From NCBI GenBank assembly GCA_900554275.1, contig USGS01000001.1, positions 5,036-69,035 of the forward strand: a stretch of DNA of 64,000 bases, in the 5' to 3' direction. The notes beneath the pieces are model-generated. The model worked only from the letters and a program-made list of their open reading frames with translations. It was not told where the DNA came from and did not search any database. This document shows positions 3,955 through 59,398 of the stretch, in pieces; the first letter of the stretch is position 1, and every line of letters starts with the position of its first letter. The position numbers and the translations under genes were made by a program. Source of the stretch: an uncultured Eubacteriales bacterium (lineage in GTDB: Bacteria; Bacillota; Clostridia; Oscillospirales; Oscillospiraceae).

Positions 3955-4270
3955 TTATTATTTTGTAACATAGAAAACGGGCGAAAAATAGAATGATTAT
4001 CCGCGAATGTGCGTTTAACAAAATGGGCGCAGCTGGAAATGGTAGTGCGAAAAACGACAAAACGGCAACGCCGTGTCACTGAGAAATGGCTGGTTTGCTT
4101 GACTTTGTCCACAAAGTGTGGTACGCAACCGTTGGAATTTTGGCACAAACGCACAGGGCTTGTTTTGAAGTGTGTCGGAATAACAATTGCGTATATTTAG
4201 CCGATGAACTTTACGCCACCTGCAAGTGCATCCTTTTGCCAGATCGTCCCCGCAAGCGCCCCCCTGATAC

Positions 4271-38820: not shown

Positions 38821-41800
38821 ACGACGATTATCGAAATTTCAACTACCGCATCCGCACCGCCTCCGTCGGCTATTACGGCGGAGATATTGCACAAACACAG
38901 GATATTAGCAAATTTAACCCCAGTATCAGCATAGAAAATACAGAAAAGCTCACTGTTACTTTTTATTCCAACAACCCCTCCGATGACACCTCCGCCCATC
39001 CTTTGACCTTCACCATTACCATTTCTGACCAGTTCGGCGGCAGCTATACCCGCACCGTCACCGGCCTGCAGGGCGGCCTGCAGCAGCTGGACAGCCGCAA
39101 CTATAAATACCAGTGGGTGCTGGACGATCTCACCTCCTCAAATAAACGATTTTTCGCGCAGACCGTCGGTAAAGTTTCCTGCGGCACCCCCATCACCATC
39201 AAGCTCACCGTATCGTCCACCGATCCTTCTATTGACACGGTTTTCACCACCCGGACCACCAACGGTCTGTTCGATGACAGGACCGATCTGGGCTATGGTG
39301 AGAACACGGCGCTGCTGGCGTATGGACGACATTTGGCTAATTTGTCCGATACGTCCCATGTCAATGCTGCCATCATCACCTCCGCCGTCCAGGTTGACGA
39401 TATTTCGTTTTTCGATGACCCCGCCGACAAAACCGACTGGTACAGCCTTTACACCGCAAATGGTGTAAGATTTTCTCCAATTTACAACAAAAATCTGACT
39501 TCTTTCAGCGGAATACATTTTACCAGCGGCAGTTATGAACAACATATCATCAACGGGCTGACCGTTTCCTCCCCGTCCGCCGCCGGGCTGTTTTCCACCT
39601 TTTCCGGTAAAATTTCCAATGCCATTTTAGTCAATTCCCAGATCACCGGCGGCGTTGCCGGCGGGCTGGCCGCCCGGACCGACGGCACTCTGACGCTGGA
39701 AAACTGCCGCGTCTATCTGACAGAACTGAGCGGGCTGAAGGCCGCCTCCGCCGACGCTGTTCCGGCGCGCATCACCGGCACGACGGTCGGCGGCCTGGTG
39801 GGTATTGCCGACCATTCGCTAACTATTCAGAACTCCTTTGCTTCCACTATTATTAAAGGCAGCACCGCCGCCGCCGGCCTGGTGGGCCACGCGCAGGGCG
39901 CTGTCAGCGTCAGCCGGTCCTACGCCGACAGCTACCTCACCGCGCCGGTCACCGGAGGGCTGGTGGGCACGACCGGCAGCATTAGCGGTCTGTCGCTCAT
40001 AGACAGCTATGCCGCCGGATACCAGGTGGCCACCGATGCGGCAGCAGGCTTTGTGGCCGGGCGGCTGGCCAACGCGCACAGCGCGTACAGCGCCTGCGCC
40101 TTCCCCGGCACGCCCCAGATCATATACACCACCGCGGCGGAAGGGAATGCCGCGAATGTCAGCTCGGTATTCTACCTGACCAGTGGCCTGGACGGGCGGA
40201 GCATCCACAGCCTTACCGGGACAACCCAGGGCCTGCCCTATGCGCAGATGAGCGCCGCATCGTTCCTGACAGCACTGAACAGCACCGCCTTCACCACCGC
40301 CAGCGCGGACACCACTGTGCCCTACAACCTGCTGAGCCAGGGTCTGAGCACCTACTCCTATCCGCTGCTGACGGGAATGAACCACTACGGCGACTGGCAG
40401 GCGGAGTTTGAGGCCGAGGCGCTGGTGTACTACGAGCGGTACGCGGACGATACGGTGGGCTTCTTCGGCGGCAACGTGGACAATTTGGCCGATGACAAGA
40501 CTATCGTCGGCGACGGCTACGCCGTGGCCCTGTCCGCGCCGCTGGGCGGCGCACAGACCATCACGGTGCAGTGCGGCACGGTGAGTACGGTGCTGAATGC
40601 CTCCTCCCTGTACTATTCCAACAGCTATGAGGGCATCTCCTATTACCTGTACCCCGTCAGCGCGCTGACCTCCGAGATCTCTCACAGCGGGAGCTTCTAC
40701 CGGACGGTGACCGTCAATCAGCGAAGCTACCAATTCAACCCCTACTTTGCCAAGACAGTGACCACCGGCAGCGGCGCGGACAGCGCTCCCGGCACGATCT
40801 ATCTGCGGACGGCGCGCCATCTGTACGAGCTAAGCCTCCATTATGACGACCTTGCCGCGGCCACGGTGAACACCACGTTCCGGCAGGAGCGGGATATTAA
40901 CTACGCCGCCTATGGGTGGACTACATACACCAGTTCCACCGATGCCGTCACCAGCCAAGCGCCTATCCACAGCGCGGCAAACACGGCGGATGTGAGCGAT
41001 ACCGGCGGCTTCCGGGCCGCCTACAACGGCGACTACCACACTATTCAGGGCGTGTCCTTCGTGAGCGCGGGGAACGATGTGGGCATGTTCGCCGTGGTCG
41101 CGCCCACGGGTACGGTGCGGAACGTGACGCTGCTGTCCTCGGGGACGGAGCGCGTGGAGCGCAGCGGGCTGATCCAGGGCAGCACCACCGTCGTCTACAT
41201 GGGTGTGCTGGCCGGGCGGAACTACGGCACGATCAGCAACTGTGCCGTGTCCGACTACGGCTTCGGCAACGGCATGGGCATACTGGCCTATCAGCACAGC
41301 ACAGTCTATATGGGCGGCCTGGTGGGCGGCAACCTGTACCACAAGACCCACAGCGGGCGCATCCTCTCCAGCGAGGCCAACTGCCCCCTGGTGCAGGTAT
41401 CCTCCTACAATGCCTCCATTTACGCCGGCGGGTTTGCCGGCAGCAACGCCGGCGGCAGCATCCAGTCCTGCTACGCGCTGGGTGTACTGAAGGCGCTGGA
41501 CGTGAGCAGCAGTACGGTGCGGCTGTGCGGCTTCGCCGGTGAAAACACCGGCGGCGCGCTGGCCTACTGCTACAGCGCCACGGCCCTGACCGCCGCCGGT
41601 GAGGCGGAGGTATACGGCCTGACCCGCACCGGCGGCAGCGCGGCCCAGTGCTACTATCTGGACGGCGGCACATACGCCTACAACAACGCGCTGTATGCCT
41701 ACAACGTATCCCACAACAGCTTCAGCGCCAACGCGGCCCAGTCGCCCATTACGGGAGAAAGGCTGGAGAGCCAGCGCCTGTACGGCTTTTCCAAGGTCAC

Positions 41801-44800
41801 CGGCAGCGGTACGGAAACGGTGTACCCTTACCCCGCCGTGGTGCGGGATCGCATCGGCCGCGCCGTACACTACGGCACATGGCCGGTGCAGCAGCACATC
41901 GGCACGATGGGCGTGTTCTACTGGGAGCGGGAGCAGGGCGGCAACGCCGGCTACCACCTGAGCTACATCGGTACAGACAACGGCGTGGCCTTTTCCGGCA
42001 GCACGCTGTGCGTCCAGCACAACGACAGCGGCGTGGTGACGGAGTACGGCTACGGCTACTTCTTCAAGCCCGGCGGCCTGACGGACACGGTGCAGCTCGA
42101 TGTGTCCGCCAACTGCTACCTGGGCGCGGCCAACTCCACGGCGGCCAGCGCGCTGGAGGCACAGATGCCGGAGTATGAGTTCGTGGCCTACACCACCGGG
42201 GCAGGAAAGGCCACCGACACCGAGTTCACCGGGGCGATGTACCTGACTGGCGAAGAAACCAACTGCACGTGGACACTGACGTATGGCGGCGCAACAAACA
42301 TATACACGCTGTGCCCGTTCTTCGCCGACGCTATGAGTCTGGACAGCATCACCGACACACAGTTCAGCGATGCCCACAAGCCGGGTACGGCGGGCAAGCC
42401 TTATCAGGTGCGCTCCGTGAGCCAGCTGCAGAATATCAACTGGAACTGCGTTGAATTGGATGCCACCTCCTCCATCAAGGGTGCGCCGGAGCAAATGCCT
42501 TTTATGGATGATCAAGGCAAAAACTACTGGAGCGCGTATCCCTATTTGGTACGGTATCAGCCCAAGGACACTACCCACGTAAAAAATAACCAGTGGCAGG
42601 ATCAGCGCGATGCGGCCATCACCCTTATCTCCAACAGCGGAAAGGGGCTGTACTGGGCGCAGTCACATGACGTAGATGCCTATGTCGAAGTGGGCAAGGC
42701 GGACGACAACTTTACACCGATCGGCGGCCTTCAGGACATCATGGAGATAGAAAGTCCGTACTCAAAGCCCTGCACCGCCTTCTTCGCGGGCAGCTTTGAC
42801 GGACAGGACTACACCATCCGCAACATTTCCATCACCAGCAGTGCCCAATGCGTGGGGCTGTTCGGCTTCACCTCCGGCGCACAGCTTCGGAACATCATCA
42901 TGTACTCCGACCGGGGCAGCGTTATCAAGAATACCGCTGACGGGCAAAACTGGTACTGCCTGGGCGGTTTGGTGGGCTTTGCCGGGGCTGGTTCTGCTGA
43001 CACCAGCACTGCCGCCCTTACCAACTGCTCTGTGTCCGGCTACACCATTCAGGACAACTGGAAGAATATCCCCGGCTGGGGCGGCGGCTGCGTGGGCGGC
43101 CTGGTGGGCGCGACCAACATGAACATCACCGGCTGCACCGCCGTAACGGACATCGTGCTGCGCATCGCTTATGAAAAGGGATGGACCAACCTGCGCGTGG
43201 GCGGCATCGCCGGCGTGTGCCGGGCCACGCTGGATAAGTGCTATGCCGGCGGCTCAATCAAGAGCATCTCTACCGTGCCTCTGAAGGAAAATGCCAGCAA
43301 AAGCACCAGCATTTGGGCCAGTGGGCTGGTGGGCGGTATTATGCTCCGCTATGAGGGCGGGCTCTCCAAGCTGGTGGGAAAGGCGGACAACACGCTCTAT
43401 GTAAAGAACAGCTACACCTTTGTGGAGATGCCTAAGAGCGGCGAGAATACCGTCCGCCGGTCTATGGCCATCGCTTCCAACGGCGAGATGCAGGACAATA
43501 ACTTCGACCAGGTGAACAACTCGAACGCCTATATTGAAAACTGCTACGCACTGGTGGACGCTGTGCAGAGCACCGATGATCACAAGGCGCAAAAAGGTGC
43601 CAACTGGAACAACCAGGTCGAGCTCAGTCGTGCTAATAAAGCCGGATGGCGCTACACATATCTCACCAACAACGGCAAGACCCCCTACATCACCTATGAG
43701 CAGATGCAGACGGAGCTGAAGGACTGGCTCAACGGCGGAGCATCCGCCTCGTCCCTGCGCTTCGACACCGTCACCGTGACGGAGAACGGCGCGCCCATCC
43801 CCGGCAAGTACAGCTTCCCCGGCGCGAACGCGGAGATGCTGGACGGCCTGGATTTCCCCTTCCCCACCATCCTGACCCAAAAGGACGTGGCCGGAAGAAC
43901 CGTGAACGTACACTACGGGCGCTGGCCCACCAGCGGCCTGTACTGGGCGCGGACGCGAACCACGCTGGACCTGTGCGCGGACCGCACCGGCCAGGGTGCG
44001 CCCACGCTGACGGTGAAGCTGTATCTCAAGCCCGACGGCACGACGCTGAGCGGGACGCCCACGCTGACGCTGGTGAACGACACCGACGGGCAGGTCAGCA
44101 CTCTGCTGGACTGCACCGCGCCGGCCTACAACAGCGCCGAGCGCTGCTGGGAGGTCACGTTCACCGGCAAGGGGCGGACGGGGCTTGCCGTTGCCCGGGC
44201 CGCGCTGGGCGGCCATACCGCCGAGCTGACCATTGACGTGACACAGACGCTGCGGCTGACCAACGACAAGGCCTCCTCCGGTGTGACCGTGACCTACGGC
44301 GGTGGAGAGCAGACCGTACAGCTGCTGCTGACGGACTCCAAAAACAATCCCATCGTGGTCAAGAGCGGCGAACGGCTGGTCTGGGAGGTCACCGCCACGA
44401 AGCAGGGCGGCGGGTACGATCCCGGCGACGAGAGCATCGTGGAATGCAGCGCCGTTACGGCAGTGGACGCGGCCAGTGGGCTGTATCAGTTCACCATCTC
44501 CGGGTTCTCCAGCGGCGTCTCCACCGTGACGGCAGCGTGTACCTATACCTATCCGGAGGGCGACGAGCTCAAGACCGTGACGGCGCGGTCGCTGCTGTCC
44601 GCCAAGTCCACCCGCGACGCGGTGGGACTTGTGTACGACGCGGCGGAGGATACCTCCGTGTATACCGTCGCCAGCGGCGTGTACCGCCGGGCGGAGAATG
44701 ACGTCGCCCAGCAGGGCACGGCGGACGTGACCGTGCCGGAGTTCCCCCGGGAGGCTGGGAAGCTGTATCTGTTCGCCGGCAGCGGCTATACCGGGCTGGG

Positions 44801-45032
44801 AGGCTTTACGGTCGATCTCACCGGGCTGACCGCCGTGGACGCGGCGGGCGATCCCGCGGCGGTGACCGCCGCCGGGCTGGGCGACATACAGTCGGCCGAG
44901 GGCGTGCAGTACCGGGAGGTGCTGTTCACCGGCGCGGACGCGGCACTTATCAGCGGCGAGATCCGCTTGACCCACAGCATGACCGGTACCGTCTATACGC
45001 TGTATCTGAAGGACTACACATACGCACCGTAA
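38718..45032 (+). CDS. Giant (2104 aa) GLUG-motif repeat surface/adhesin protein; GTG start overlapping minor pilin by 103 nt, or 3' continuation of it via frameshift in C-rich tract 38797-38817
   Basis: Multiple GGLVG/AAGLVG/GGLVGG GLUG-type repeats; no internal ATG for >280 codons after overlap; beta-rich low-charge composition. Confidence 0.7.
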   Translation: MERLLVHRICPLNRQYLRCFLQRVPPPLPSHTALNDDYRNFNYRIRTASVGYYGGDIAQTQDISKFNPSISIENTEKLTVTFYSNNPSDDTSAHPLTFTITISDQFGGSYTRTVTGLQGGLQQLDSRNYKYQWVLDDLTSSNKRFFAQTVGKVSCGTPITIKLTVSSTDPSIDTVFTTRTTNGLFDDRTDLGYGENTALLAYGRHLANLSDTSHVNAAIITSAVQVDDISFFDDPADKTDWYSLYTANGVRFSPIYNKNLTSFSGIHFTSGSYEQHIINGLTVSSPSAAGLFSTFSGKISNAILVNSQITGGVAGGLAARTDGTLTLENCRVYLTELSGLKAASADAVPARITGTTVGGLVGIADHSLTIQNSFASTIIKGSTAAAGLVGHAQGAVSVSRSYADSYLTAPVTGGLVGTTGSISGLSLIDSYAAGYQVATDAAAGFVAGRLANAHSAYSACAFPGTPQIIYTTAAEGNAANVSSVFYLTSGLDGRSIHSLTGTTQGLPYAQMSAASFLTALNSTAFTTASADTTVPYNLLSQGLSTYSYPLLTGMNHYGDWQAEFEAEALVYYERYADDTVGFFGGNVDNLADDKTIVGDGYAVALSAPLGGAQTITVQCGTVSTVLNASSLYYSNSYEGISYYLYPVSALTSEISHSGSFYRTVTVNQRSYQFNPYFAKTVTTGSGADSAPGTIYLRTARHLYELSLHYDDLAAATVNTTFRQERDINYAAYGWTTYTSSTDAVTSQAPIHSAANTADVSDTGGFRAAYNGDYHTIQGVSFVSAGNDVGMFAVVAPTGTVRNVTLLSSGTERVERSGLIQGSTTVVYMGVLAGRNYGTISNCAVSDYGFGNGMGILAYQHSTVYMGGLVGGNLYHKTHSGRILSSEANCPLVQVSSYNASIYAGGFAGSNAGGSIQSCYALGVLKALDVSSSTVRLCGFAGENTGGALAYCYSATALTAAGEAEVYGLTRTGGSAAQCYYLDGGTYAYNNALYAYNVSHNSFSANAAQSPITGERLESQRLYGFSKVTGSGTETVYPYPAVVRDRIGRAVHYGTWPVQQHIGTMGVFYWEREQGGNAGYHLSYIGTDNGVAFSGSTLCVQHNDSGVVTEYGYGYFFKPGGLTDTVQLDVSANCYLGAANSTAASALEAQMPEYEFVAYTTGAGKATDTEFTGAMYLTGEETNCTWTLTYGGATNIYTLCPFFADAMSLDSITDTQFSDAHKPGTAGKPYQVRSVSQLQNINWNCVELDATSSIKGAPEQMPFMDDQGKNYWSAYPYLVRYQPKDTTHVKNNQWQDQRDAAITLISNSGKGLYWAQSHDVDAYVEVGKADDNFTPIGGLQDIMEIESPYSKPCTAFFAGSFDGQDYTIRNISITSSAQCVGLFGFTSGAQLRNIIMYSDRGSVIKNTADGQNWYCLGGLVGFAGAGSADTSTAALTNCSVSGYTIQDNWKNIPGWGGGCVGGLVGATNMNITGCTAVTDIVLRIAYEKGWTNLRVGGIAGVCRATLDKCYAGGSIKSISTVPLKENASKSTSIWASGLVGGIMLRYEGGLSKLVGKADNTLYVKNSYTFVEMPKSGENTVRRSMAIASNGEMQDNNFDQVNNSNAYIENCYALVDAVQSTDDHKAQKGANWNNQVELSRANKAGWRYTYLTNNGKTPYITYEQMQTELKDWLNGGASASSLRFDTVTVTENGAPIPGKYSFPGANAEMLDGLDFPFPTILTQKDVAGRTVNVHYGRWPTSGLYWARTRTTLDLCADRTGQGAPTLTVKLYLKPDGTTLSGTPTLTLVNDTDGQVSTLLDCTAPAYNSAERCWEVTFTGKGRTGLAVARAALGGHTAELTIDVTQTLRLTNDKASSGVTVTYGGGEQTVQLLLTDSKNNPIVVKSGERLVWEVTATKQGGGYDPGDESIVECSAVTAVDAASGLYQFTISGFSSGVSTVTAACTYTYPEGDELKTVTARSLLSAKSTRDAVGLVYDAAEDTSVYTVASGVYRRAENDVAQQGTADVTVPEFPREAGKLYLFAGSGYTGLGGFTVDLTGLTAVDAAGDPAAVTAAGLGDIQSAEGVQYREVLFTGADAALISGEIRLTHSMTGTVYTLYLKDYTYAP

Positions 45033-49130: not shown

Positions 49131-50105
49131 TTATCCGGCGGCATATCCGCCGCCTACGTCATTGCCCAGATCGCAGGTGTAGAGCCACTCCACCACATCG
49201 CCGTTCTGCAGCGCGTAGCGGGAGCAGCCGTAGTTGGGAAACCAGCCGTTGACCCGGTACATCCAGCCCGAGCCCTGGCTTACATCGAACTCGTACAGAT
49301 TGTTGATGCCCTCCACATAGGCGCTGTTATACATGGGCGTCCAGCTGGCCTCCATGTGGATGCCGTTCTCCCGACAGACCCGCTGCAGCACGTCATAGAC
49401 GCTCTCGCCCTCGCTGAACGTGACGGTGGTGCTGGGAAGGATCACGCCGTCGGAGGGGACTAAGGGCTTCTTCGCCGCGGCGGTGTCTGCGTCCCACTCG
49501 TCCCAGGCGTCCCAGTTGGCCAGGATCGTGCCGCAGGAGATGGAGATGGTGCAGGTATACTTGGTGGTCTCGTCCACCGTGGTGTCCTGCGGCTCGGAGG
49601 GTGTGGGCTTTCCCTCGGGAACGGGGTCAGTCTCATACTTGTCCTTGCCCGTATCAGGATCAATGACCTGCTCCGGCTGCTTCTTCTGCTCGTCCTGTTT
49701 CTTTTTTTCTTCCTCTAACCGTTTCTGTTCCTCTTGCTTTTTCTGTTCCTCTTGCTTTTTCTGTTCCTCTTGCTTTTTCTGTTCTTCTAACCGCTTCTGC
49801 TCCTCCAGCTTTTTGGCCTCGTCAGCGGCTGTCTGGCCCGCGTTCGCCGCGTCTGTCTTTGTATTGGTCTTGGTGTCAGTCGTATCGGTCTTGGCGTCGG
49901 TCTTGTCTCCAGCCGCCGTGCCGTCCTTCTTGTCCTCCGTCCTGGCCGTGTCGCCGGTCTTGCTGTCAACGGTCTGTTCCTGTTTGGTATCGGGCGCTGC
50001 GTCGCCGTCAGCCGCCTTTTTCTTGCCGCAGGCGGTGCAGGTCAGCAGCATGGCCAGGGCCAGCGCCACCAGCCAAAAGCTACGTTTTCTCATCATGCTC
50101 TCCAT
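49131..50105 (-). CDS. Lipoprotein with E/K/Q-rich repeat linker and C-terminal DUF4430 (transcobalamin-beta-like) domain
   Basis: Lipobox LLTCTAC; (EEQKKQ)n repeats; C-terminal SGWMYRVNGWFPNYGCSRYALQNGDVVEWLYT matches DUF4430 pattern. Confidence 0.7.
   Translation of the reverse strand: MESMMRKRSFWLVALALAMLLTCTACGKKKAADGDAAPDTKQEQTVDSKTGDTARTEDKKDGTAAGDKTDAKTDTTDTKTNTKTDAANAGQTAADEAKKLEEQKRLEEQKKQEEQKKQEEQKKQEEQKRLEEEKKKQDEQKKQPEQVIDPDTGKDKYETDPVPEGKPTPSEPQDTTVDETTKYTCTISISCGTILANWDAWDEWDADTAAAKKPLVPSDGVILPSTTVTFSEGESVYDVLQRVCRENGIHMEASWTPMYNSAYVEGINNLYEFDVSQGSGWMYRVNGWFPNYGCSRYALQNGDVVEWLYTCDLGNDVGGGYAAG
49690..49810. repeat. 18-bp tandem repeat (ctgttcctcttgcttttt) x~4 encoding EEQKKQ repeats
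   Basis: seen directly; in-frame so length variation would keep frame. Confidence 0.7.
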
Positions 50106-50167: not shown

Positions 50168-53100
50168 TTACTTGGATGCACGCTTTTTCTTCTGTGTCAG
50201 TACCACCACGGCGGCTGCCGCCAGGATGGCGCTGCCCATCCAGATAGTCATCTGGCTGTCGTCAGCCGTGTTGGCGGAGGTGGGCTTGACAACAGTGGTG
50301 CTGCCGCTGCCGCCACCGCTGCTGCTGCGCTCCGTGTAGCTTATCGCCACCGGGGACAGGCCCGTCAGCGTGACCAGCAGGCCGTCCGCCGTCATAACGG
50401 CGGCGGGGAATTCCACCGTGCCCACGTCCTTGCCGCAGCCGGCCATGGTCACCAGGTGGGCCACCGTGAAGCTGTAGCTTCTGTAGTCACCGGCCACCTC
50501 GCTGGGATAGGGCAGCAGCACGGTGATCCGGCCGCCAGTCAGGTCGTCCTTTGTGGCAGGGCGTGACACGCCGTTCTCCGTGACCGTCAGGGTCACCTCC
50601 ATCATCACAGTGTTCTTCTCCGTGATGGCGTTGTTCTCCCGGCTGATCTCCAGCTGCAGGGTGCTCTTCACCTTTTCGGGGGTGTTCAGCTTCTCGTTGT
50701 CCGCCACGACGGAGGAAACGTCCGCCTTGACGTCCACCTTCTTCACAGTGCTGTCGCTGGTCTTCATCAGGCCGCAGACGCACTGTACGCCCTGTACGTA
50801 GGTGTGGGACTCCTTGGTCAGCACCGCACCGCAGACGGTGCAGGTGAGCCAGTGGCTGTCCTTATCCATGGCGTAGACCGTACCGGCCTTGTGGCCCAGT
50901 GCGGGGATGTCCTTGGTCTCCTTCGCCTCACCGCACACGGTGCAGGTACGGGTGGAGACACCGGTCTCAGTGCAGGTAGCCGCCTTGGTAACGGTCCATT
51001 CGCCGAACTTGTGGCCCAGCGCGGGAATGTCCTTGGTCTCCTTCGCCTCACCGCACACGGTGCAGGTACGGGTGGAGACACCGGTCTCGGTGCAGGTAGC
51101 CGCCTTGGTAACGGTCCATTCACCGAACTTGTGTCCCAGCGCCGGGACGGTCAGGGTCTCCTCCGCGCCGCACACGGTGCAGATACGGGTGGAAACGCCG
51201 GCCTCGGTGCAGGTGGCCGCCTTGGTAACGGTCCATTCGCCGAACACGTGCTTGATGCACACGTCGTTCATGTCATACAGGAAGCTCCGGCCTCCGGTCA
51301 GGCGCATATACGCCGCCAGGGCATAGTAGGATTGCTCAGTGCCCATCTGATCCACGGTGGCGTCCGCGAGCTGATGCTTGAAGGCCTCGCCCGTGTAGAA
51401 GGTCAGCAGGCCGTCCACCACATGGAAGGAATTCTTGGCGAAGCGTGCGTCCGCGGTGGGATCGATACCCAGGGCGCACAGGGCCACCAGTACCTGGGCG
51501 GTGGACTCGCTGCTGCTGGCCGCGCCCGCCATTTCGGCAAACGAGCCGTCGGACTTCTGCATGGTGCTGAGCCAGGTCAGCGCCTTGTCCACAGCGGCCT
51601 TCACCGCTTCGTTGGTCTTGTAGTAGGGAGCAAGCGCCTGGATGGCCATGGCGGTCATGTCCACGTCATCCGTGGCGTTGGTGCTGTTGATGTACCACGC
51701 GCCGCTGTCCTTCTGCAGAGACAGGATGGTCTCCACCAGCGCGTCGCGGGTCACGCTGCCTGCGGGGGTATAGCCGTGGCTGTCCAGGGCGATCAGCGTC
51801 CACACCGGACCGTTGGTGCCCTGCCGCTTGACGTACTTCATATCGTCCAGACCGGCCAGCAGATCGAAGCCGCCCACATCGGTGACATCCTTGCCGATGG
51901 CCGTCAGGGCCAGGATCAGCCGGGCGTTGTCCGTGGACTTATTACGGTCGAGCCGGTTGGTGGTGGTGTTGATCTCGGCCTTGACGTAGGCCACAGCGTT
52001 GTCGTAGTAGCCCTCCGGCACGGTGCGGCCGCTGCGGGCCAGGCCGATGGTCAGCCACTCGCCGCCGATGCTGCCCACGATGGGCGTGCCCTTGCCGGAC
52101 AGATAGTCGCCGGTGGTCTTATAGGCCTCCTGCACGTCCGGACCGGCGGGCTTGGCCACCGTCAGGGTGACGGTATAGGGCGTGCTGGTCTTCTCGCCGT
52201 CGCTGGCGGTAAACACCAGCGTGGTCTTGCCCACGAGAACGGCGGTGTAGCGGAAGGATGCCTCCGCCGCCACAGGCGCAGCGCCGTTGATGCTGACCGC
52301 GTAGGTCATCTCGTCGCCGTCCGCGTCGGTGAAGATAGCGGACAGGTCAATGGTGTACTCGTCGTGGAGCGTCACACCGGCCTCCGCACCCTCGGCGGCC
52401 GCCGCGGGCGCGGTGTCGGCGATGGTCAGGCCGCTGACATAGGCCATGTCAGCGCCGTTGTTGCCGCCGCTGTCCTTCACATAGGTCACGGTGAGCGTCC
52501 ATGTACCGGCGGTCAGAATGCCGTTGTAGGTATCCGCCTTTGTGCCGCTGATGCCGCTGGCAACGGTGTTGGTCTCCGTGCCGTTGCTCAGGGTGATGGT
52601 GGCCTTGTCGTAGTTCTCCTCGGAGGAAACGCCGAAGTCGAAGGCGATGGTGCGCTGGCGATCCAGCGTGAACACGAAGGAGGTCGTGGAGGTGGAGCTG
52701 TTCGCGCCCGCGTTGCCGCTCTCGAAGCGCTCAGCGGCGCTGTTGTAGGTCCAGGGATACTTGCCCTCGTCCGTCATGGCGGCGCTGACAACGCCGGTGG
52801 CGGGCAGGGTCACATACTCCAGACGTGTATCGGCCCAAACCGTGATGAGCTCATTGCAGACATCGCAGGTGTAGGTGTAATAGGCGGGATAGACCGTCCT
52901 CGTGCCGGCGCGCTCCGTGTGGCCGGTGGCGGCCACATAGGTGTCGCGATAGGACTCCCGGCACAGGGTGCAGGTGCGGAGGGTGTAGCCCTTCTCCGTG
53001 CAGGTGGGCGGGACCACCGTGCCGCCCTCGGCCTTGTGGAAGGTCACGTCCTTCTGCCACTTCAGAGCGGGATAGCCGCCGCAGGTCGGGCCAAAGGCCT

Positions 53101-56100
53101 CTGCGTTCAGCTCGGCGGATTTCATCTGTTCCTCCGTCAGCACGGCGGCGTTGGCGTCCGCCGCCAGGGCGTAGCAGTTGGTGACGGTGGCAGAGCCTGC
53201 GTCCACGCTGCCGAACGCGCCGTTGCCGCCGGTGACAGCGCCCACGCTGTAGCAGTCGGACACAGCGGAGGTGGCCAGCAGGCTGCCGGTCCAATTCGTC
53301 TCGCCCTTCGCAACGCCGCCGATACCGCCGGCATTGCTGCTGGCGCTGACCGCGCCGGTGTTGTAGCAGTTGGTCACGGTAATGCCGTAGTTGCCGTTGC
53401 CGAAGATGCCTCCGGCGGTGCTGCCGGTGGCGGCGACAGCGCCGGTGTTGTAGCAGCCGGTGATGACGGCGCCGCTGCCGACGAAGCCGCCGATGATGCC
53501 GCCCACGCTGCCGCTGCCGGTGACAGCGCCGAGGTTGGCGCAGTTCCTGATGGTGGTGGTGCTGTTGGCATAGCCCACGATACCGCCCACATTGCTGCCT
53601 GTGCCGCTGATGGTCACATGGCTGAAGCAGTTCTCAATAACGATGTCCTTGCCATAGGCGTAGCCCGCCACAGAGCCGCCGCCGGCGGACGTGCCGCGCA
53701 GGGTCAGGCTCTGGATGTGAGAGCCGCCGCCGATCTGCTTGAACAGGCCGCTGGTGGCGTTCAGGCCGGTGATCTCATGGCCCGCGCCGTCCAGCTCGAC
53801 CTTCTTGCTGCTGTCGATATTCAGCCAGGCGTACTTGCCCAGATCAATGTCGGCAGTCAGAACGCCGGACACATCGGCGGTCTTGCTCTCGTTCACGAAC
53901 CAGGCCAGCTCCGCGCCGGTGGCGATCTGATACACGCCGCTCTCGTTCTTCTGGGGCTCGGTCTTGCTGCTGCCGTTCCAGGCGCTGTCGGAGGTGACCG
54001 TCAGCGTGACGGAGAACTGGTTCGTGCCGTCCTCGGTGACGGTGACAGAGCCGGTGGTATACTCCACACCCTGGCCGGAGATGGTGTAAAAATACTCCTC
54101 GGCATAGCATTTGAAGCTGCCGTCGTCGGCCACATTGACCACGTTGCCCGCGGCATCCTTCAAGGTAACGGTCAGGCTTGTGCGGGCGATGGCCTTGCCG
54201 TCGCTGCCCACAAAGCTCAGCTTGCCGGTGAGGAAGTCCGTCTTGGCCAGCGCCAGCGTCAGCTCGGGCAGACGGGCCAGGACGCCGGAGGTGCTGGGTG
54301 CGTTGAAGCCGGGGTTTGTGCCGGCGGCATAGGTGATGCCGCGGTGGGTGGGCACGCCCGGCCACCCGGCCTGCTTGATCGCGCCGGAGAGGGAATAAGT
54401 CTCGCCGTCCCAATACTTGGGAATGGTGATGCTGATGCGCTGGCGGGCCGGGTTACCGCTGAAGTCGTACACGCCGAAGTTGCCGCCGGGGTCGGACTTG
54501 AAGAATGTGCCGTCCTCACCCTGGTAGTACAGGGAGAAGTTGAAGTTATACGCGCCGGACAGCTTCTCCTTGGGGCTGACCAGGTTGCTGAACTGCAGGT
54601 TCACGGTGTCGCCGGCCTTGAGGGCTTTCATCGCGGCCTCAGACAGCTCCTTGCCATCGTTGTCCACCAGCTTATAGCTGACGCCCCGGGCGGTGACGAC
54701 CTGATAGTTGGCCACGCCGTTCTTCTCCACCTTGATGATGTGGCGGCCCGTGGTCAGGCCGGTAACGGTGACCGTGCCGTCCTCCGCCACAGTCACACCA
54801 TTGTTGGTGAAACCGTTGAAGGTCATGGTATCGCCCACGGTAGAGCGGGCCACGGTGACGGTGCAGCCGCTTTCGGGCTTGAAGCTGTAGGAAGCGCCCT
54901 TATCGCCCAGATAGAACAGGATGTCGTGCTCCGCGTCCAAAATGCGCTGCTCATCCTTGGTGATGGCGGCATCCATACGATCCAGTGTCATGTTGGTCTC
55001 GATGCCCGTGCCGTCGCTGCCCACCGTCACCACGAACACGCCGGTGCACTCCGGCCAGATGGCGGAGAACTCCTTGCTGGAGGTGCTGCTCTGACCCTGC
55101 TTATGGATCATGGCGTCGTAGGTCACCAGCACGATGGCCGTACCGGCCTTGTTGGCGGTCATAGTGGCCACATTGCTGTTTACCGCGTCCGGGGTGATGG
55201 TCACCACGTCGCTGGGATTGCCGTTGACGTCGATGACCTGATAGTGCATATCGGGCAGGGCCACCTTGGCGTTCATATAGCTCTCGATGGCGAACCAGTT
55301 GCGGAAGGAGTTCAGCTCGAACGTCTCGCCCACGGCCATGCTCTTGTAGCCCTGGGTATTGATGTTCAGGTAGATGTCGGCGCGGTCATACACGTTCTTC
55401 TCGAAGCGGTAGATCGTGTCCTTGGTGAAGCTCGTATCGCCGATGTGCAGATCCTCCGCCGTCAGGGTGATGGCGTCGTCCGCGCTCCAGCGCTTATAGT
55501 CCCAGTAGGTCACGCCGTCGGGGTTCTGCACGCGGTAGAAATAGTCCGTGTTCTGATCCACGCGGTAGGCGACGGTGTTGGTCGCCTCATCGCGGCTCAC
55601 GGGCTCGATATAGGAGTACACATAGTACTTGGCCAGCGTACCCATGGTGACAGTGGAGCCTGCCGGAACGGTAAGGGTCACGTTCACGCCAGCCTTGCAG
55701 TTGATGGAGAAACTGTCGTTCATGGTGGGGGTCTTCTTCGCGGTGGCCGTATTGAAGGTGGGCCGGGTCACCGGGTCGGGCGTGACCGTGGCCTGCACGG
55801 TATCGCCTACCACGAAGATGCAGCTGTCGTAGGTTTTCTCCCACGTCTGGCCCTTGCCGCTGACAGTCCGGCCCGGTGCAGCGGTGCGCACCTGGTTGTC
55901 GGCGGAGGTGACCTTCACATCCAGGGTGTAGTCCGTGCCCAGCACCCAACCGGAGTTCACGGAGATCTGATAGATGCGCTGGATCTTGGCCGCGTTCTCG
56001 CCGGCCTTGACCGTCAGGGACAGGCCGCCGTTGCAGTCGTCGTTGGCGTCATAGCCCTCCACCCAGTAGTCGCCCACGGGCAGCGTCAGGGTATAGGCGG

Positions 56101-57850
56101 CATTGGCGATCGTCACATCCGCCAGCAGGTCGGTGTCGCCCTTGACGCCATCAATATAGGTATACAGCTTGAGATACTTGACCTGCGCGTCATGGAGACC
56201 GCTGAGGGTCAGCTCGGCTTCTTCCACCGCGTTCACATCCACCGTGACCGGCAGGATGCTGAGAACGATGGGAGTCGCGTAGTTATCTTTGATCTCCGCT
56301 TTCGGCATATACGCCGTCAGATAATATGTACCATCCGTCTCCGGAGCGGTAAAGGACACTGTGCCGTCCTCTGCCACCACAGCGCCGCTGATGTCCGTCA
56401 GCTTGCCGCTTTCCGCATTGACCCAGGCCAGCTGGGCGCCTTCCAGCGCACTGATCTGATTATTGGCTTCCAGCGCCTCCATAGGCACGCAGCCATAGTA
56501 ACCGATGCAATAGCCCATCACGGTCATATTCACCGCCGCCTTGGGCTTTATCGTCAGGCTGTCCAGCTTGGCATCAGCCTTCTCCCAGATCGGGTAATTA
56601 TCCAGTGCAGAGTCGTCCTGATACAGGAAGAAATCCACAACATTGCCGGTATTCACCTCCGCCTGTGCGACGGTGTAGCCGGTATAGCTCTTCCCGCCGG
56701 GAGCGTAGGTGTCATCCGCCAGTACGCCGTTATGCGGCACAGAGCCGTTGATGGTAAAGCCGCAGTTCCCCGTCTTTTCGCCGAAAATAGTGGTGATAAA
56801 ACCGCTGCTGCTTACGACCAAATAGTCCGCAGCCGTCTCCTTGGTGAACGCCTCACCGAAGGTCAGCTCATGGGCGCGGACCAGCACGTCCAGCGCGGAC
56901 ACGCCGTCCACCTCGTCGGTAAAGCCGTACTTCTCCGCCAGATCAGACGCCACGGTCTGCTTCTCCGCGAAGCCGTGGAGATATGCGCCCGCCGCCTGAG
57001 AGCGGATGGTCACCTCCGCCGTGGTAACCACCGGCGCGTGGGGCGCGATCATCGTAACAGTATAGGTGGTGGGGGTAACAGCCGGCGTGGCGTTCTCGCC
57101 CTCGCCGCTGGCCTCCTGTGCGTCGCCGCAGCGGATGGTCAGCACCGTGCCGTCCGCCACGGGGATAGACGCCGTGCGGCGGTAGGAGGTCTCGCCCACA
57201 GACAGATAGACCTGGTTCTGCTTGTTGGCTGCGGAGGCCGCGACAGTGACCTGCTCCACGCCCTCCGTCAGCTCCAGGGTATAGCTGGTGGTGTCCTTGT
57301 CGAATTCGGGCGCCAGCTTACCGGCGCTGAAGCTCAGGGCCGTCAGGCTGGTGTCGTTCATCGTCGTCCAGTTGCCGCCGATGTCCGCGCCCAAATTGCA
57401 GGTATACATGACGCGGATCTGGTCGCCGTTGGCCAGCGTACCGTCTGCCACGGTAAATTCTTTAAAGCCGCGGTTGGTGAACCAGTCGTTCAGCGTGCCC
57501 ATCCAGCCGCCGCCCTGGCTGCCGTCAAAATGGCCCAGAGCCGCATCGCCCTTGGTGATCTCGCTGATATAACCCTTGTCCGCGCCTACGGCGGTGTAGC
57601 CCGCCCCACGCAGCGCGCTGTCTACGCAGCTCATCATGGTGGCATCCGCCGTCAGGGTCACGTCGGTGTCCACCAGCGTACCCTTCATCTCATCATACTG
57701 GACGTCGGTATACGTGGTGTTCTCCACGATGACGTGGACACTGCCGAGGCTGCTTTCGCTCCCCTCGGCCACTTCGGCCCACACGGTGGTGGGGATCAGG
57801 CTCAGCGCCATGACCAGTGCCAGGAAGAGCGAAACTAAGCGTTTCTTCAT
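50168..57850 (-). CDS. Giant (2560 aa) cell-surface protein: signal peptide, N-terminal DUF4430-like domain, cadherin-like/Ig-like modules, GLUG-motif repeats, alpha/alpha-toroid (prenyltransferase/squalene-cyclase-like) region, three ~40-aa Cys-containing tandem repeats, C-terminal hydrophobic anchor + KKKR tail
   Basis: MKKRLVSLFLALVMALSLIPTTVWA; GWMGTLNDWFTNRGFKEFTVADGTLANGDQIRVMYT; GGIVGYA/VGGIIGG/AGGIFGN; GHKFGEWTVTKAATCTE.GVSTR.CTVCG x3; ...IWMGSAILAAAAVVVLTQKKKRASK. Confidence 0.8.
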   Translation of the reverse strand: MKKRLVSLFLALVMALSLIPTTVWAEVAEGSESSLGSVHVIVENTTYTDVQYDEMKGTLVDTDVTLTADATMMSCVDSALRGAGYTAVGADKGYISEITKGDAALGHFDGSQGGGWMGTLNDWFTNRGFKEFTVADGTLANGDQIRVMYTCNLGADIGGNWTTMNDTSLTALSFSAGKLAPEFDKDTTSYTLELTEGVEQVTVAASAANKQNQVYLSVGETSYRRTASIPVADGTVLTIRCGDAQEASGEGENATPAVTPTTYTVTMIAPHAPVVTTAEVTIRSQAAGAYLHGFAEKQTVASDLAEKYGFTDEVDGVSALDVLVRAHELTFGEAFTKETAADYLVVSSSGFITTIFGEKTGNCGFTINGSVPHNGVLADDTYAPGGKSYTGYTVAQAEVNTGNVVDFFLYQDDSALDNYPIWEKADAKLDSLTIKPKAAVNMTVMGYCIGYYGCVPMEALEANNQISALEGAQLAWVNAESGKLTDISGAVVAEDGTVSFTAPETDGTYYLTAYMPKAEIKDNYATPIVLSILPVTVDVNAVEEAELTLSGLHDAQVKYLKLYTYIDGVKGDTDLLADVTIANAAYTLTLPVGDYWVEGYDANDDCNGGLSLTVKAGENAAKIQRIYQISVNSGWVLGTDYTLDVKVTSADNQVRTAAPGRTVSGKGQTWEKTYDSCIFVVGDTVQATVTPDPVTRPTFNTATAKKTPTMNDSFSINCKAGVNVTLTVPAGSTVTMGTLAKYYVYSYIEPVSRDEATNTVAYRVDQNTDYFYRVQNPDGVTYWDYKRWSADDAITLTAEDLHIGDTSFTKDTIYRFEKNVYDRADIYLNINTQGYKSMAVGETFELNSFRNWFAIESYMNAKVALPDMHYQVIDVNGNPSDVVTITPDAVNSNVATMTANKAGTAIVLVTYDAMIHKQGQSSTSSKEFSAIWPECTGVFVVTVGSDGTGIETNMTLDRMDAAITKDEQRILDAEHDILFYLGDKGASYSFKPESGCTVTVARSTVGDTMTFNGFTNNGVTVAEDGTVTVTGLTTGRHIIKVEKNGVANYQVVTARGVSYKLVDNDGKELSEAAMKALKAGDTVNLQFSNLVSPKEKLSGAYNFNFSLYYQGEDGTFFKSDPGGNFGVYDFSGNPARQRISITIPKYWDGETYSLSGAIKQAGWPGVPTHRGITYAAGTNPGFNAPSTSGVLARLPELTLALAKTDFLTGKLSFVGSDGKAIARTSLTVTLKDAAGNVVNVADDGSFKCYAEEYFYTISGQGVEYTTGSVTVTEDGTNQFSVTLTVTSDSAWNGSSKTEPQKNESGVYQIATGAELAWFVNESKTADVSGVLTADIDLGKYAWLNIDSSKKVELDGAGHEITGLNATSGLFKQIGGGSHIQSLTLRGTSAGGGSVAGYAYGKDIVIENCFSHVTISGTGSNVGGIVGYANSTTTIRNCANLGAVTGSGSVGGIIGGFVGSGAVITGCYNTGAVAATGSTAGGIFGNGNYGITVTNCYNTGAVSASSNAGGIGGVAKGETNWTGSLLATSAVSDCYSVGAVTGGNGAFGSVDAGSATVTNCYALAADANAAVLTEEQMKSAELNAEAFGPTCGGYPALKWQKDVTFHKAEGGTVVPPTCTEKGYTLRTCTLCRESYRDTYVAATGHTERAGTRTVYPAYYTYTCDVCNELITVWADTRLEYVTLPATGVVSAAMTDEGKYPWTYNSAAERFESGNAGANSSTSTTSFVFTLDRQRTIAFDFGVSSEENYDKATITLSNGTETNTVASGISGTKADTYNGILTAGTWTLTVTYVKDSGGNNGADMAYVSGLTIADTAPAAAAEGAEAGVTLHDEYTIDLSAIFTDADGDEMTYAVSINGAAPVAAEASFRYTAVLVGKTTLVFTASDGEKTSTPYTVTLTVAKPAGPDVQEAYKTTGDYLSGKGTPIVGSIGGEWLTIGLARSGRTVPEGYYDNAVAYVKAEINTTTNRLDRNKSTDNARLILALTAIGKDVTDVGGFDLLAGLDDMKYVKRQGTNGPVWTLIALDSHGYTPAGSVTRDALVETILSLQKDSGAWYINSTNATDDVDMTAMAIQALAPYYKTNEAVKAAVDKALTWLSTMQKSDGSFAEMAGAASSSESTAQVLVALCALGIDPTADARFAKNSFHVVDGLLTFYTGEAFKHQLADATVDQMGTEQSYYALAAYMRLTGGRSFLYDMNDVCIKHVFGEWTVTKAATCTEAGVSTRICTVCGAEETLTVPALGHKFGEWTVTKAATCTETGVSTRTCTVCGEAKETKDIPALGHKFGEWTVTKAATCTETGVSTRTCTVCGEAKETKDIPALGHKAGTVYAMDKDSHWLTCTVCGAVLTKESHTYVQGVQCVCGLMKTSDSTVKKVDVKADVSSVVADNEKLNTPEKVKSTLQLEISRENNAITEKNTVMMEVTLTVTENGVSRPATKDDLTGGRITVLLPYPSEVAGDYRSYSFTVAHLVTMAGCGKDVGTVEFPAAVMTADGLLVTLTGLSPVAISYTERSSSGGGSGSTTVVKPTSANTADDSQMTIWMGSAILAAAAVVVLTQKKKRASK
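50888..51250. repeat. ~120-bp near-identical tandem repeat x3 inside giant gene (encodes GEWTVTKAATCTE..CTVCG modules)
   Basis: three successive units starting ~50888, 51008, 51128 with >90% identity. Confidence 0.75.
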
Positions 57851-58461
57851 CTGTTGTTTCCTCCTTGTGATTTTCTCTGCTCGTTATATAAACGCCTTTC
57901 GGCCTTGCTGCCCCTGTCTCCGCTCAGGAAGAGGAGGTGGGAGAGGCCCGGCTTGGCCTCTCCTACCCTTATGGAAAGCTGACGGTCTCCGTTCAGACCG
58001 CCAAGGCTTGGCAAAAATAAGGGTGCTGCGTGTTCCCTCCAATACGAAAAAACGCCGGTCATCCGCCTGCGCGGAAAACCAGCGAGTGCCGCAAGAAAAA
58101 AGCACCGACGCTTCCGTCACCGGAAACATCAGCGCGTACCCTTGCCTTGTCCATATCACACACGGAGAGAGCGCCCGCTGTTGTCGGCCCTCCTCCATGT
58201 AAGTCTCCTGCCTCGCGCCACGGAGCTTTCGCTCCCCGTCTGCCGCCTACCTTCTCAGGACTTGCGTCCCAATGGCTGACTTTCGTCACACAGCTCTCGC
58301 CGCTTCGGTGCATCCTTGCGCCCACAGTGCCGTTCGCGTGGGGTTCTTGCGCCCCGTTCCTTTCAAAACTGCCGCCTGACCGTGTTCGGTCGTTGCGGCG
58401 GCAGCCACACAGCATCCTCGGACCACTATTCACTTATCCGGGCCGTCCGGCCCACTGCAAA

Positions 58462-58493
58462 TCATTATAGCCGCCCCGTCTTTCCTTGTCAAG
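58462..58493 (-). promoter_or_regulatory. Consensus sigma-A promoter TTGACA-17-TATAAT driving a ~600-nt 5' leader of the giant surface-protein gene
   Basis: minus strand cttgacaaggaaagacggggcggctataatga; leader 58455->57851 contains multiple GC hairpins and two hairpin+U-tract candidates. Confidence 0.55.
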
Positions 58494-58513
58494 GGGGCTG
58501 GCATCGCAAACTG

Positions 58514-59398
58514 TCATTTTTCTCCATTCTCCGCCACCCAACGCCGCACATAGTCCACGAAACGCCGGGTAGACGCGGACAGCGCCCCCTTGTCCTTCAC
58601 GCCGATGCCGATGTTGCGGTAAAACCGCTCCGGCGCGTGGCACACCGCCACCGGGTACGGGCTGTGGCGCACCATCAGCTCCGGCAGCAGGCTGATGCCC
58701 AGTCCCTTGGACACCATGGCCAGCATGGTTCGGTCCTCCCGGGCGGTATAGCGGACGTTGGGCCGCACGTCCATCCGGTCCAGCGCCGCCGTGATCTCAT
58801 AGTCGTCGCCCTCCTCCAGCCGGATGAACGGCTCGCTGGCCAGCGCCTGCAGGGGAAACGTGTTGTTCCCCGCCAGCGGGTGGCCGCAGGGCGTCACCAC
58901 CACCAGCTCGTCCCGGTGCAGGGGATACGTCTGCAGCCGCTTGGCAGACGGCAGCCGCAGAAACCCGCAGTCCACCTTGCCCTGCAATATCCACTCCTCG
59001 CTCTGGCCGTAGAAATCGCCGGTGACCACCTCGAACTCAATATTGGGATACAGCTCCCCGAAGCTCTTGAGGATAGACGGCAGCCACTGGGCGGACACGC
59101 TGGAGAACGTGGCCACCTTCACAAGGCCCGCATCCATGCCCTTCAGATCCGCCGCCGACTGCATCAGCGCCCGGTGGGCGGCGCACAGCCGCTCGATCTT
59201 GGGCAGCAGGGCACGGCCGTCCGCCGTCAGCACCACGCCGCCCCGGTTGCGGCTCAGCAGCGTGACGCCCAGCTCGTCCTCCAGCGACTGCACCGCGTGG
59301 CTCACGCCGGACTGGGTAAAATTCAGCGCCTCCGCCGCCTTGGAAAAGCTGCCGCACTCCACCGTCTTGACGAACATCTGATATTTGGACACGCTCAT
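58514..59398 (-). CDS. LysR-family transcriptional regulator
   Basis: N-terminal HTH FSKAAEALNFTQSGVSHAVQSLEDELGVTLL; 294 aa. Confidence 0.85.
   Translation of the reverse strand: MSVSKYQMFVKTVECGSFSKAAEALNFTQSGVSHAVQSLEDELGVTLLSRNRGGVVLTADGRALLPKIERLCAAHRALMQSAADLKGMDAGLVKVATFSSVSAQWLPSILKSFGELYPNIEFEVVTGDFYGQSEEWILQGKVDCGFLRLPSAKRLQTYPLHRDELVVVTPCGHPLAGNNTFPLQALASEPFIRLEEGDDYEITAALDRMDVRPNVRYTAREDRTMLAMVSKGLGISLLPELMVRHSPYPVAVCHAPERFYRNIGIGVKDKGALSASTRRFVDYVRRWVAENGEK

Follow-up and report, generated by a model that had tools for sequence, protein, structure and literature searches.

The 64,000-nt stretch of DNA analyzed here (hereafter, the window) is part of contig USGS01000001.1 from an uncultured Eubacteriales bacterium of the Oscillospiraceae. 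Its minus strand carries, at 50168–57850, the gene of a 2560-amino-acid (aa) protein that is predicted to be secreted and cell-anchored, with a signal peptide and a C-terminal membrane anchor, and the long leader of this gene is the subject of our analysis. Unless stated otherwise, all features of the window described below lie on the minus strand. A sigma-70-type promoter is located at 58492–58464 (TTGACA, 58492–58487; 17-nt spacer; TATAAT, 58469–58464) and agrees with the consensus in 12 of 12 positions. The ATG start codon at 57850 has a good ribosome-binding site, the Shine-Dalgarno sequence AAGGAGG at 57866–57860. Given these two boundaries, the untranslated leader ahead of the 2560-aa open reading frame (ORF) is ~605 nt long. 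An original prediction, made by reading the letters alone, had described a perfect TTGACA-17-TATAAT promoter (at coordinates 1–2 nt off those given here), the start codon at 57850, and a leader of ~600 nt, and had proposed a riboswitch or attenuator. The promoter and start codon are present, and the general call of a promoter followed by a long structured leader was right. As detailed in the following, this leader very probably is a diverged cobalamin (vitamin B12) riboswitch that is predicted to attenuate transcription of the surface-protein operon.

The promoter is the sole sigma-70-like site within 57500–59000, where shuffled sequences yield 0.3 such sites. Both hexamers are unchanged in five close relatives, among which the spacer sequence differs, and promoters of the form TTGACT-17-TATGAT occupy the equivalent spot at the more diverged loci L041 and L046 (L numbers denote retrieved loci). 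Transcription would start at about 58457–58455, roughly 7 nt past the consensus −10 hexamer. The predicted folding energy of the whole leader is −269 kcal/mol, compared with −233 ± 6 kcal/mol for dinucleotide shuffles (z = −5.9; 0 of 20 shuffles equal), which shows that its structure exceeds chance.

To assign the RNA to a family, the leader was compared with the 4227 families of Rfam, using E-value searches with permissive filters of 901 nt and 266 nt around the leader and reporting matches up to E ≤ 10. RF00174 (Cobalamin, clan CL00101) was the only riboswitch family matched, at 58362–58201 and model positions 45–169, with a score of 16.1 bits (E = 0.12 in the 901-nt and E = 0.036 in the 266-nt search). 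Since the original prediction had named only about four families beforehand, the effective E-value for RF00174 is roughly a thousand-fold lower. The other families that had been put forward there for a covariance search, GEMM-I (RF01051), c-di-GMP-II (RF01786), and T-box (RF00230), gave no match at E ≤ 10 in either search, whereas RF00174 was matched below its threshold. The hallmark sequence blocks of cobalamin aptamers are all present and in order: AAGGAA (consensus GGGAA), the L4 block GGCGCAAGAACC (consensus GGUGcaAauCC), ACUGU, GCCAUUG...UGAGAAGG (consensus GCCACUG...CGGGAAGG, GGGAAGG), and the B12 box GAGGCAGGAGACUU at 58214–58201 (consensus GAGCCAGGAGACCU, AGCCAGGAGACC). These core blocks deviate from the consensus by single bases and are invariant over three lineages, represented by the window group, L041, and L046. 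The low Rfam score is mainly due to an oversized P2 hairpin and to insertions in the P6 extension, because of which only the core matches locally.

The cobalamin-type aptamer, as delimited by RNAalifold and the local RF00174 match, spans 58425–58185. It is closed by P1, in which an outer segment pairs UGGUCC (58425–58420) with GGGCCG (58190–58185) and an inner segment pairs CUGUGU (58412–58407) with ACAUGG (58200–58195). The long P2 hairpin follows at 58406–58367 and contains CUGCCGCC...GGCGGCAG, one of the strong hairpins already pointed out in the original prediction; the other, GGGCCGGACGGCCC, is located at the 5' end of the leader (58453–58440). P3, which pairs AAG with CUU, was taken from the Rfam alignment and was not predicted by RNAalifold. 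Downstream of it lie the P4 (58355–58340) and P5 (58337–58329) hairpins, and the ACUGU and GCGC helices (58327–58318 with 58218–58208), which close an extended P6. P6 and its GNRA-capped extension, which comprises several hairpins, occupy 58312–58219 and include the GCCAUUG...GAGAAGG block (58276–58249). Because the P6 extension is present, the ligand is likely to be an adenosylcobalamin-type corrinoid.

This architecture was evaluated in an alignment of seven aptamers from the three lineages. Unguided RNAalifold analysis returned 72 pairs, which make up P1, the P2 hairpin, P4, P5, and the extended P6. Pairing holds in 98.4% of the cells, and compensatory changes affect 11 pairs, compared with 3.5 ± 1.4 in shuffles (0/500) and 0–2 in slid controls. 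The single-stranded blocks of junction and loops are invariant across the three lineages, and the peripheral stems vary. Furthermore, aptamer identity among close relatives is 98.3–99.6%, versus 79–97% over the initial 900 nt of the coding sequence. Covariation supports the aptamer part of the leader.

Model searches and genomic context point to the same family. A covariance model built from this variant alone (R1) was run over 292 kb of retrieved loci, and its top non-self matches were L026 (37.5 bits, E = 4.6e-10) and L016:13141–13338 (23.9 bits, E = 8.7e-6), both of which Rfam independently calls RF00174 (73 and 35 bits, respectively). Relatives of the N-terminal 700 aa of the giant protein are encoded at eight genomic loci, and non-coding sequence of several hundred nucleotides lies upstream of the homologous genes. 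In these regions RF00174 scores above threshold at L005 from Hydrogeniiclostridium mannosilyticum (97.9 bits), L007 (54.7 bits), and L002 (39.3 bits), and below threshold at L004 (27.5 bits) and at the closest relative, L001 (21.9 bits), which shows the local match seen in the window. The presence of RF00174 elements upstream of the homologs thus indicates that this gene family is under predicted B12-riboswitch control, with scores that grade continuously from canonical to sub-threshold. We conclude that the element in the window is a genuine, though divergent, aptamer of the cobalamin class. Cobalamin had been only the second candidate of the original prediction, and it is the one that the sole riboswitch match, the above-threshold orthologs, the covarying fold, and the retrieval of RF00174 members by R1 bear out.

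Near-identical leaders were found at L029–L035 through protein-homolog look-ups, and diverged copies of the variant aptamer at L041 and L046–L048, each with its own promoter and one clean terminator. L001, L041, and L046, which bear the same variant, likewise miss the RF00174 threshold. A metagenome search with the pattern GCCATTG..GAGAAGG..GGARGACTTA returned other B12 riboswitches (with P3 AAG/CUU) and chance matches in coding genes, and no close relative of the variant.

The aptamer is linked to a predicted expression platform with three components: hairpin X, which excludes P1; a candidate antiterminator; and a pair of strong intrinsic terminators. Hairpin X (58200–58160; arms ACAUGGAG/CUCCGUGU), pairs the P1 3' strand ACAUGGAGGAGGGCC (58200–58186) with the CU-rich strand GGGCGCUCUCUCCGUGU and has a folding energy of −24.3 kcal/mol (z = −3.8). 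Equivalent hairpins in L041 and L046 reach −22.8 and −19.5 kcal/mol, despite substitutions in both strands. In the folding models, P1 and X exclude each other because both use the P1 3' strand, and both alternatives are conserved, as is characteristic of a switch. The 5' end of the leader (58455–58428) consists of the terminal hairpin GGGCC-GGAC-GGCCC and the conserved stretch GGAUAAGUGAAUAGUG. Its GGGCC duplicates P1 3'-strand sequence, which would allow an alternative pairing with the P1 5' strand; in L041 and L046 the 5' copy (GGACA) co-varies with their P1 3' strand (GGACA).

X is followed by two hairpins that correspond to the hairpin-plus-U-tract sites of the original prediction; both exist and are very stable. 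T1 (58135–58096) has a 15-bp stem (58135–58102) with a GUGA loop, followed by UUUUUU (58101–58096), and T2 (58084–58047) has a stem of 13 bp with one internal mismatch (58084–58053), followed by UUUUUU (58052–58047). Both have the GC-rich hairpin and subsequent U run of intrinsic terminators, with energies of −26.4 kcal/mol (z = −6.2) for T1 and −23.5 kcal/mol (z = −5.2) for T2. Substitutions of T1 in L001 and L032 preserve pairing (U-G to U-A), and the single clean terminators of L041 and L046 are located at the T1 position. T2 is present in the window group only, with 96–100% identity in relatives. Arm sequences are similar between T2 and T1 (CGCUGGUUUUCCG vs CGCUGAUGUUUCCG; CGGAUGACCGG vs CGGAAGCGUCGG), and T2 may be a diverged tandem copy of T1. 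Given this similarity, the 3' arm of a blocked T1 could also pair with the 5' arm of T2, in which case the two terminators would be passed or formed together.

A candidate antiterminator is provided by the tip of X, GACAACAGCG (58185–58176), which can pair with the T1 5' arm. When P1 is forced or its 3' strand is withheld, and the RNA ends before the T1 3' arm, GACA.ACAGCG pairs with CGCUG.AUGUU in the window, and GCGCGGCGGGCGU pairs with AUGCGCCGCCGGU in the same constrained folds of L041 and L046. This pairing unites the tip and 3' strand of X with the spacer and T1 5' arm. Its complementarity is weakly above chance, as 0.12, 0.06, and 0.09 of composition-matched shuffles are as good in the three lineages. 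Another apparent antiterminator, between GGCGCG of the aptamer segment and the 5' end of T1, was rejected as a truncation artefact, since it appears only when its upstream partner is cut off and is gone in full-length folds. A general partner scan for the T1 arms was uninformative, because many GC-rich segments pair with them.

Several observations count against a functional cobalamin riboswitch at this locus. At the curated Rfam gathering thresholds, the whole 64-kb window gave 0 matches, and the local match reaches half of the RF00174 gathering score of 31.5 bits. Within the aptamer, L4 has GGCG where the consensus has GGUG, P3 is AAG/CUU and its inner pair is G-A in L041 and L046, and the B12 box ends in CUUAC in place of CCUGCC. 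The covariation derives from three independent lineages only. In the platform, all constrained folds contain T1 at equilibrium, so that regulation must be kinetic and its sign is not derivable; since no state was free of T1, minimum-energy folding under constraints did not yield the sign. Finally, shuffles match the complementarity of L5 (GCGAACGGC) to the tip of X (fraction 0.45–0.9). With regard to the Rfam result, the original prediction had listed a cmscan negative for all families among the outcomes that would refute it; applied at gathering thresholds, this test would have wrongly discarded the finding.

We propose the following mechanism. The RNA would start ~7 nt after the −10 hexamer, and the aptamer (58425–58185) would fold during transcription. 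Ligand occupancy would then choose between P1 and X through the shared P1 3' strand, and this choice would be relayed to T1 (58135–58096), with T2 (58084–58047) as a backup. By such transcription attenuation, the leader would control an operon of the giant gene (50168–57850) and probably the following gene (49131–50105). Termination is presumably the regulated step.

Regarding the direction of control, we lean, with reservation, toward repression of the operon by B12, because all tested corrinoid riboswitches but one repress and because the product resembles a B12-capture protein. In the validated repressing model, the ligand stabilizes P13 via an L5–L13 kissing loop, and the 3' side of P13 otherwise pairs with the terminator (PMC10653944). 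X would have to be P13 for this model to apply, yet X and P1 overlap, and no complementarity was found between L5 and the loop of X. A kissing loop is needed in both corrinoid riboswitches dissected in PMC10653944, in which further mechanisms are also expected to exist. The helix relay read literally, with P1 locked, no X, antiterminator formation, and no T1, has the parity of an activator. It is thus possible, if rather unlikely, that the leader is an activating corrinoid riboswitch, in which bound ligand would lock P1, prevent X, and allow the tip and 3' strand of X to antiterminate T1, giving read-through; in the ligand-free state, X and T1, and then T2, would form, and transcription would stop. 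This version is consistent with the P1/X strand, which is common to all three lineages and in which substitutions are matched in both partners, and with the folds stopping before the T1 3' arm, which show the antiterminator pairing in the window as well as in L041 and L046. It also agrees with the unconstrained minimum-energy fold of the full ligand-free leader, which consists of X and T1 and represents the “off” state, and no kissing loop was found by which the ligand would stabilize X. A natural precedent is the cobT riboswitch of Alkalihalobacillus halodurans, the only natural activating corrinoid riboswitch known among those tested (PMC10653944). However, this sole activator works otherwise, as its P13 is itself the antiterminator and is held by a kissing loop. 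Moreover, the antiterminator complementarity in our leaders is barely above chance (0.06–0.12 per lineage), GC-rich RNA has many alternative pairings, and B12-capture genes are expected to be B12-repressed.

The same observations bear on explanations that dispense with B12 sensing altogether. The sub-threshold Rfam score, the several deviations from consensus, the lack of a detectable kissing loop, and the thermodynamic dominance of T1 in all states would fit a decayed former B12 riboswitch that has become ligand-independent and now acts as a constitutive attenuator or stability element. We regard such decay as improbable, since the junction core is invariant in three lineages whose peripheral stems diverged with compensation, the aptamer is better conserved than the flanking coding sequence, and the P1/X alternative is retained in all lineages; together, these features argue for continued selection on a switching RNA. 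GEMM-I riboswitches often precede surface-protein genes, and a c-di-GMP riboswitch of this type controlling a surface adhesin had been the leading suggestion of the original prediction, based only on the visual likeness of GACGAAAGUC and GGGACGCAAGUCC. This suggestion did not survive: RF01051 and RF01786 remained unmatched even at E ≤ 10, the two GNRA hairpins concerned are peripheral P6-extension elements of the cobalamin fold whose stems vary with compensation, and the orthologs bear cobalamin riboswitches. A GEMM-I element is therefore extremely unlikely, and GEMM-I, GEMM-II, and T-box were all rejected by the covariance-model searches.

Equally negligible is the chance that the leader acts by leader-peptide attenuation or contains a small protein gene. 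Three ORFs do exist across it, at 57884–58198 (104 aa, with an AUG after AGGAGAC), 57847–58062 (71 aa), and 58059–58433 (124 aa), and the B12 box resembles a Shine-Dalgarno sequence 6 nt ahead of an AUG. The latter resemblance also explains a spurious Rfam match to Mu-gpT-DE (17.6 bits), which merely comprises CCUGA...CAGGAGAnnnACAUG, that is, the B12 box plus AUG. Nevertheless, the AUG at the B12 box is missing from L041 and L046, substitutions track RNA pairing rather than codons, and all three ORFs were ruled out because one-base indels between the window and L001 break each of the three frames.

Beyond the terminators, the leader contains a second conserved region. A weak hairpin with a U run, GGAGGGAACACGCAGCACCCUUAUUUUUGCC (58035–58010), aligns with the terminator of the leaders at L037-type loci and is probably a decayed terminator. 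The tail motif, at 58014–57928, consists of CAAGCC, hairpin A (GGCGGUCU/AGACCGUC), the sequence UUUCCAUAAGGG, hairpin B (GGAGAGGCC/GGCCUCUCC, with the loop AAGCCG), and the CU-rich run CCUCCUCUUCC. Its invariant parts across lineages are CAAGCC, UUUCCAUA(A)GGG, the (A/C)AGCC loop, and the CU-rich 3' run, and UUUCCAUANGGG occurs only once in the window. A second covariance model (R2), derived solely from the window group, matched L036, L042, L043, and L044 with 35–37 bits (E~1e-6) and L037–L040 and L045 with 25–28 bits (E = 1e-4 to 7e-4), with copies of the motif at L036:1409–1483, L043:937–1011, L037:1869–1946, and L039:1868–1946; elsewhere, R2 matched only generic terminator hairpins. The tail alignment was model-guided, as MAFFT/RNAalifold misaligned the tail hairpins. 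In a manual reading of this alignment, both hairpins keep their pairing through two-sided changes, for example U-A to C-G or G-C. The motif has no match in Rfam. It is absent from L041 and L046, which carry the aptamer of the window, and is common to lineages with different B12 aptamers. The alignment of the hairpin at 58035–58010 with the L037-type terminator suggests that the sensing module may have been replaced upstream of a retained tail.

The tail is non-coding. A search for a second promoter inside it found none, and since the spacing of the conserved blocks varies between 24 and 30 nt among lineages, the tail is not a promoter. The proximal leader (57927–57851) contains a small GCC-GAAA-GGC hairpin, the sequence GGCGUUUAUAUAA, which is conserved with L037-type leaders, and the Shine-Dalgarno sequence AAGGAGG. 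Downstream of the tail, the window has GGCGUUU..AUAA, the Shine-Dalgarno sequence, and a similar signal peptide in common with the L036/L037-type orthologs. In the minimum-energy fold, the CU-rich run pairs with the Shine-Dalgarno sequence, and the masking segment differs in each lineage. Our best guess is that the putative role of the tail is Shine-Dalgarno masking, or that of a processing or stability element. A bolder and doubtful possibility is a two-module device, in which B12 would switch the operon on via a relay free of kissing loops, and the tail motif (58014–57928) would be a second control point that was kept while class-I-like and class-II-like aptamers were swapped. If true, this reading would add a second natural activating corrinoid riboswitch, which works by a different mechanism.

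The predicted function of the regulated genes is consistent with control by B12. The giant protein has a weak N-terminal match to DUF4430 (E = 0.047), a cadherin-like domain, GLUG-type/IgA1-protease-like repeats, and an alpha/alpha toroid that is prenyltransferase-like and scores 30.4 bits in a scan of its own, and its homologs carry PF14478, PF12733, and PF00432. The next gene (49131–50105), located 62 nt downstream, encodes a 324-aa protein with a clear DUF4430 match (PF14478, E = 6.9e-19) and probably shares an operon with the giant gene. The DUF4430 context invoked in the original prediction is thus real, yet it resides chiefly in this second gene. DUF4430 is the C-terminal domain of TCN (transcobalamin) proteins (PMC4350170), and the toroid may correspond to the transcobalamin alpha domain. 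A sequence search of the Protein Data Bank (PDB) found no B12-binding relative of either protein; the only match was the IgA1-protease-like GLUG region, where aa 1426–1564 of the giant protein resemble a putative IgA1 protease (PDB 3n6z, E = 1.7e-5). Orthologs of the surface protein with 45–50% identity are encoded directly after cobU-cobS-cobU at L037:1–1585, L038, L039:1–1587, L040:1–1589, and L045:1–1085. The cobU and cobS genes function in corrinoid salvage and nucleotide-loop assembly, and their adjacency strengthens the link of the surface-protein family to B12. A B12 sensor ahead of this operon therefore makes biological sense.

Additional observations concern the neighborhood of the leader and the variability of the gene. 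A LysR-type gene (59398–58514; 294 aa) stops 22 nt ahead of the −35 hexamer. No terminator-like hairpin was seen between the end of lysR and this hexamer, and transcripts of lysR could continue into the leader. The order of lysR and leader is retained in L001, L029, L032, and L034 and is not found in more distant orthologs. In three close relatives, gene calling splits the giant gene into two ORFs with differing break points: L029:2501–6677 (558 + 1942 aa), L032:2501–6617 (538 + 2105 aa), and L034:2501–6398 (465 + 2047 aa). In L034, nt 900–1650 of the gene are only ~66% identical to the window, compared with >97% identity in the leader. These differences may reflect polymorphic frameshifts or stops, hypervariability within the surface protein, or an assembly error. 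The plus strand of the window contains a second giant ORF (38718–45032; 2104 aa) with a GLUG motif, so that, including the riboswitch-controlled protein, the window holds several giant surface proteins.

Further divergent B12 aptamers were found among the retrieved loci. A short class-II-like aptamer (GGCGGAAUGGGGUGAAAAGCCCC...GGUCACUGUGAUGCCUGC...AAGUCAGAUAC) is located at L036:1100–1260, L037:1660–1800, and L003:3690–3800; its carriers include L036/L042/L043 and L037–L040/L045, distant orthologs whose proteins are about 45–50% identical. Locus-wide Rfam searches at E ≤ 1 missed it, and a focused search of L037 gave RF01482 (AdoCbl) as the best match, with 21.3 bits (E = 0.11) and a gathering score of 50. 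This group is another under-called group of B12 riboswitches. Another sub-threshold cobalamin variant (AAAGGAACGCGCAA...GCCAUUGUGCCGG...GAGAAGGCGGGAAC...AGCCGGAAGACUUAU) is present at L004:3416–3641, L006:~3600–3800, L012, L021, and L024. Besides the 27.5 bits of L004, its members gave nothing at the gathering threshold, and their P3 has AAG/CUU in place of GGG/CCU. The same AAG/CUU pairing is seen in the above-threshold members L013, L018, L022, L023, L026, and L028. At L028, an unrelated metagenome contig retrieved by the pattern search, a ZMP/ZTP riboswitch (4093–4176, minus strand; 58.1 bits) lies ~1.2 kb from the cobalamin riboswitch, which we consider incidental.

Taken together, the new elements revealed by this analysis are a cobalamin sub-lineage under the Rfam threshold, an expression platform that competes with P1, tandem terminators, and a previously undescribed conserved tail; the riboswitch class and the B12 context are ordinary. 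Under-threshold B12 riboswitches in gut Oscillospiraceae comprise the window group, L041, L046, the L004/L006 type, and the short L036/L037 type. As a consequence of such sub-threshold elements, B12 regulons are under-called in these abundant and poorly studied gut bacteria, and models R1 and R2 offer a route to recovering the missed elements. The association of B12 sensing with very large, variable surface proteins that contain transcobalamin-like domains suggests that Gram-positive gut anaerobes have a system for corrinoid capture, on which there is almost no literature. The platform differs from the two dissected corrinoid platforms and would be well suited to testing how the binding of a corrinoid is passed on; should the sign of control be positive, it would represent a rare natural activator. 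The tail motif is an RNA element now open to testing.

Compared with class I cobalamin riboswitches of RF00174, such as those of Escherichia coli btuB and Priestia megaterium metE, the leader has the same closing P1, P2 hairpin, P3–P6 junction, and extended P6, and the same series of blocks, namely the GGAA junction, L4, ACUGU, GCCAUUG...GAGAAGG, and the B12 box GCAGGAGAC. It also shares with them a terminator-type platform and a location 5' of genes for B12-related transport or binding. It differs in a P2 of about twice the usual length, A-U pairs in P3, the GGCG of L4, and extra GNRA hairpins in the P6 extension. Furthermore, its post-aptamer hairpin uses the P1 3' strand, whereas P13 of P. 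megaterium is a separate hairpin, and it has no detectable L5–L13 complementarity and two tandem terminators. In the A. halodurans cobT riboswitch (PMC10653944), P13 is the antiterminator, is stabilized by L5–L13, and overlaps the terminator. In the window, by contrast, X overlaps P1, X (58200–58160) and T1 (58135–58102) have no common bases, and no kissing loop was found. Both RNAs nonetheless combine a corrinoid aptamer with subsequent exclusive hairpins that decide on a terminator, and the predicted parity here is also activating.

Within the same gene family, the canonical RF00174 elements of L005, L007, and L002 share with the window the position before DUF4430/cadherin-like surface-protein genes, a leader of several hundred nucleotides, and a terminator. 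They differ in scoring above threshold, in leaders that cannot be aligned with that of the window outside the aptamer core, and in the absence of the tail motif. The short class-II-like aptamers of the L036/L037 type (clan CL00101) lack the P6 extension and have the B12 box AAGUCAGAUAC, but have in common with the window both the regulated gene family and the conserved tail between terminator and start codon.

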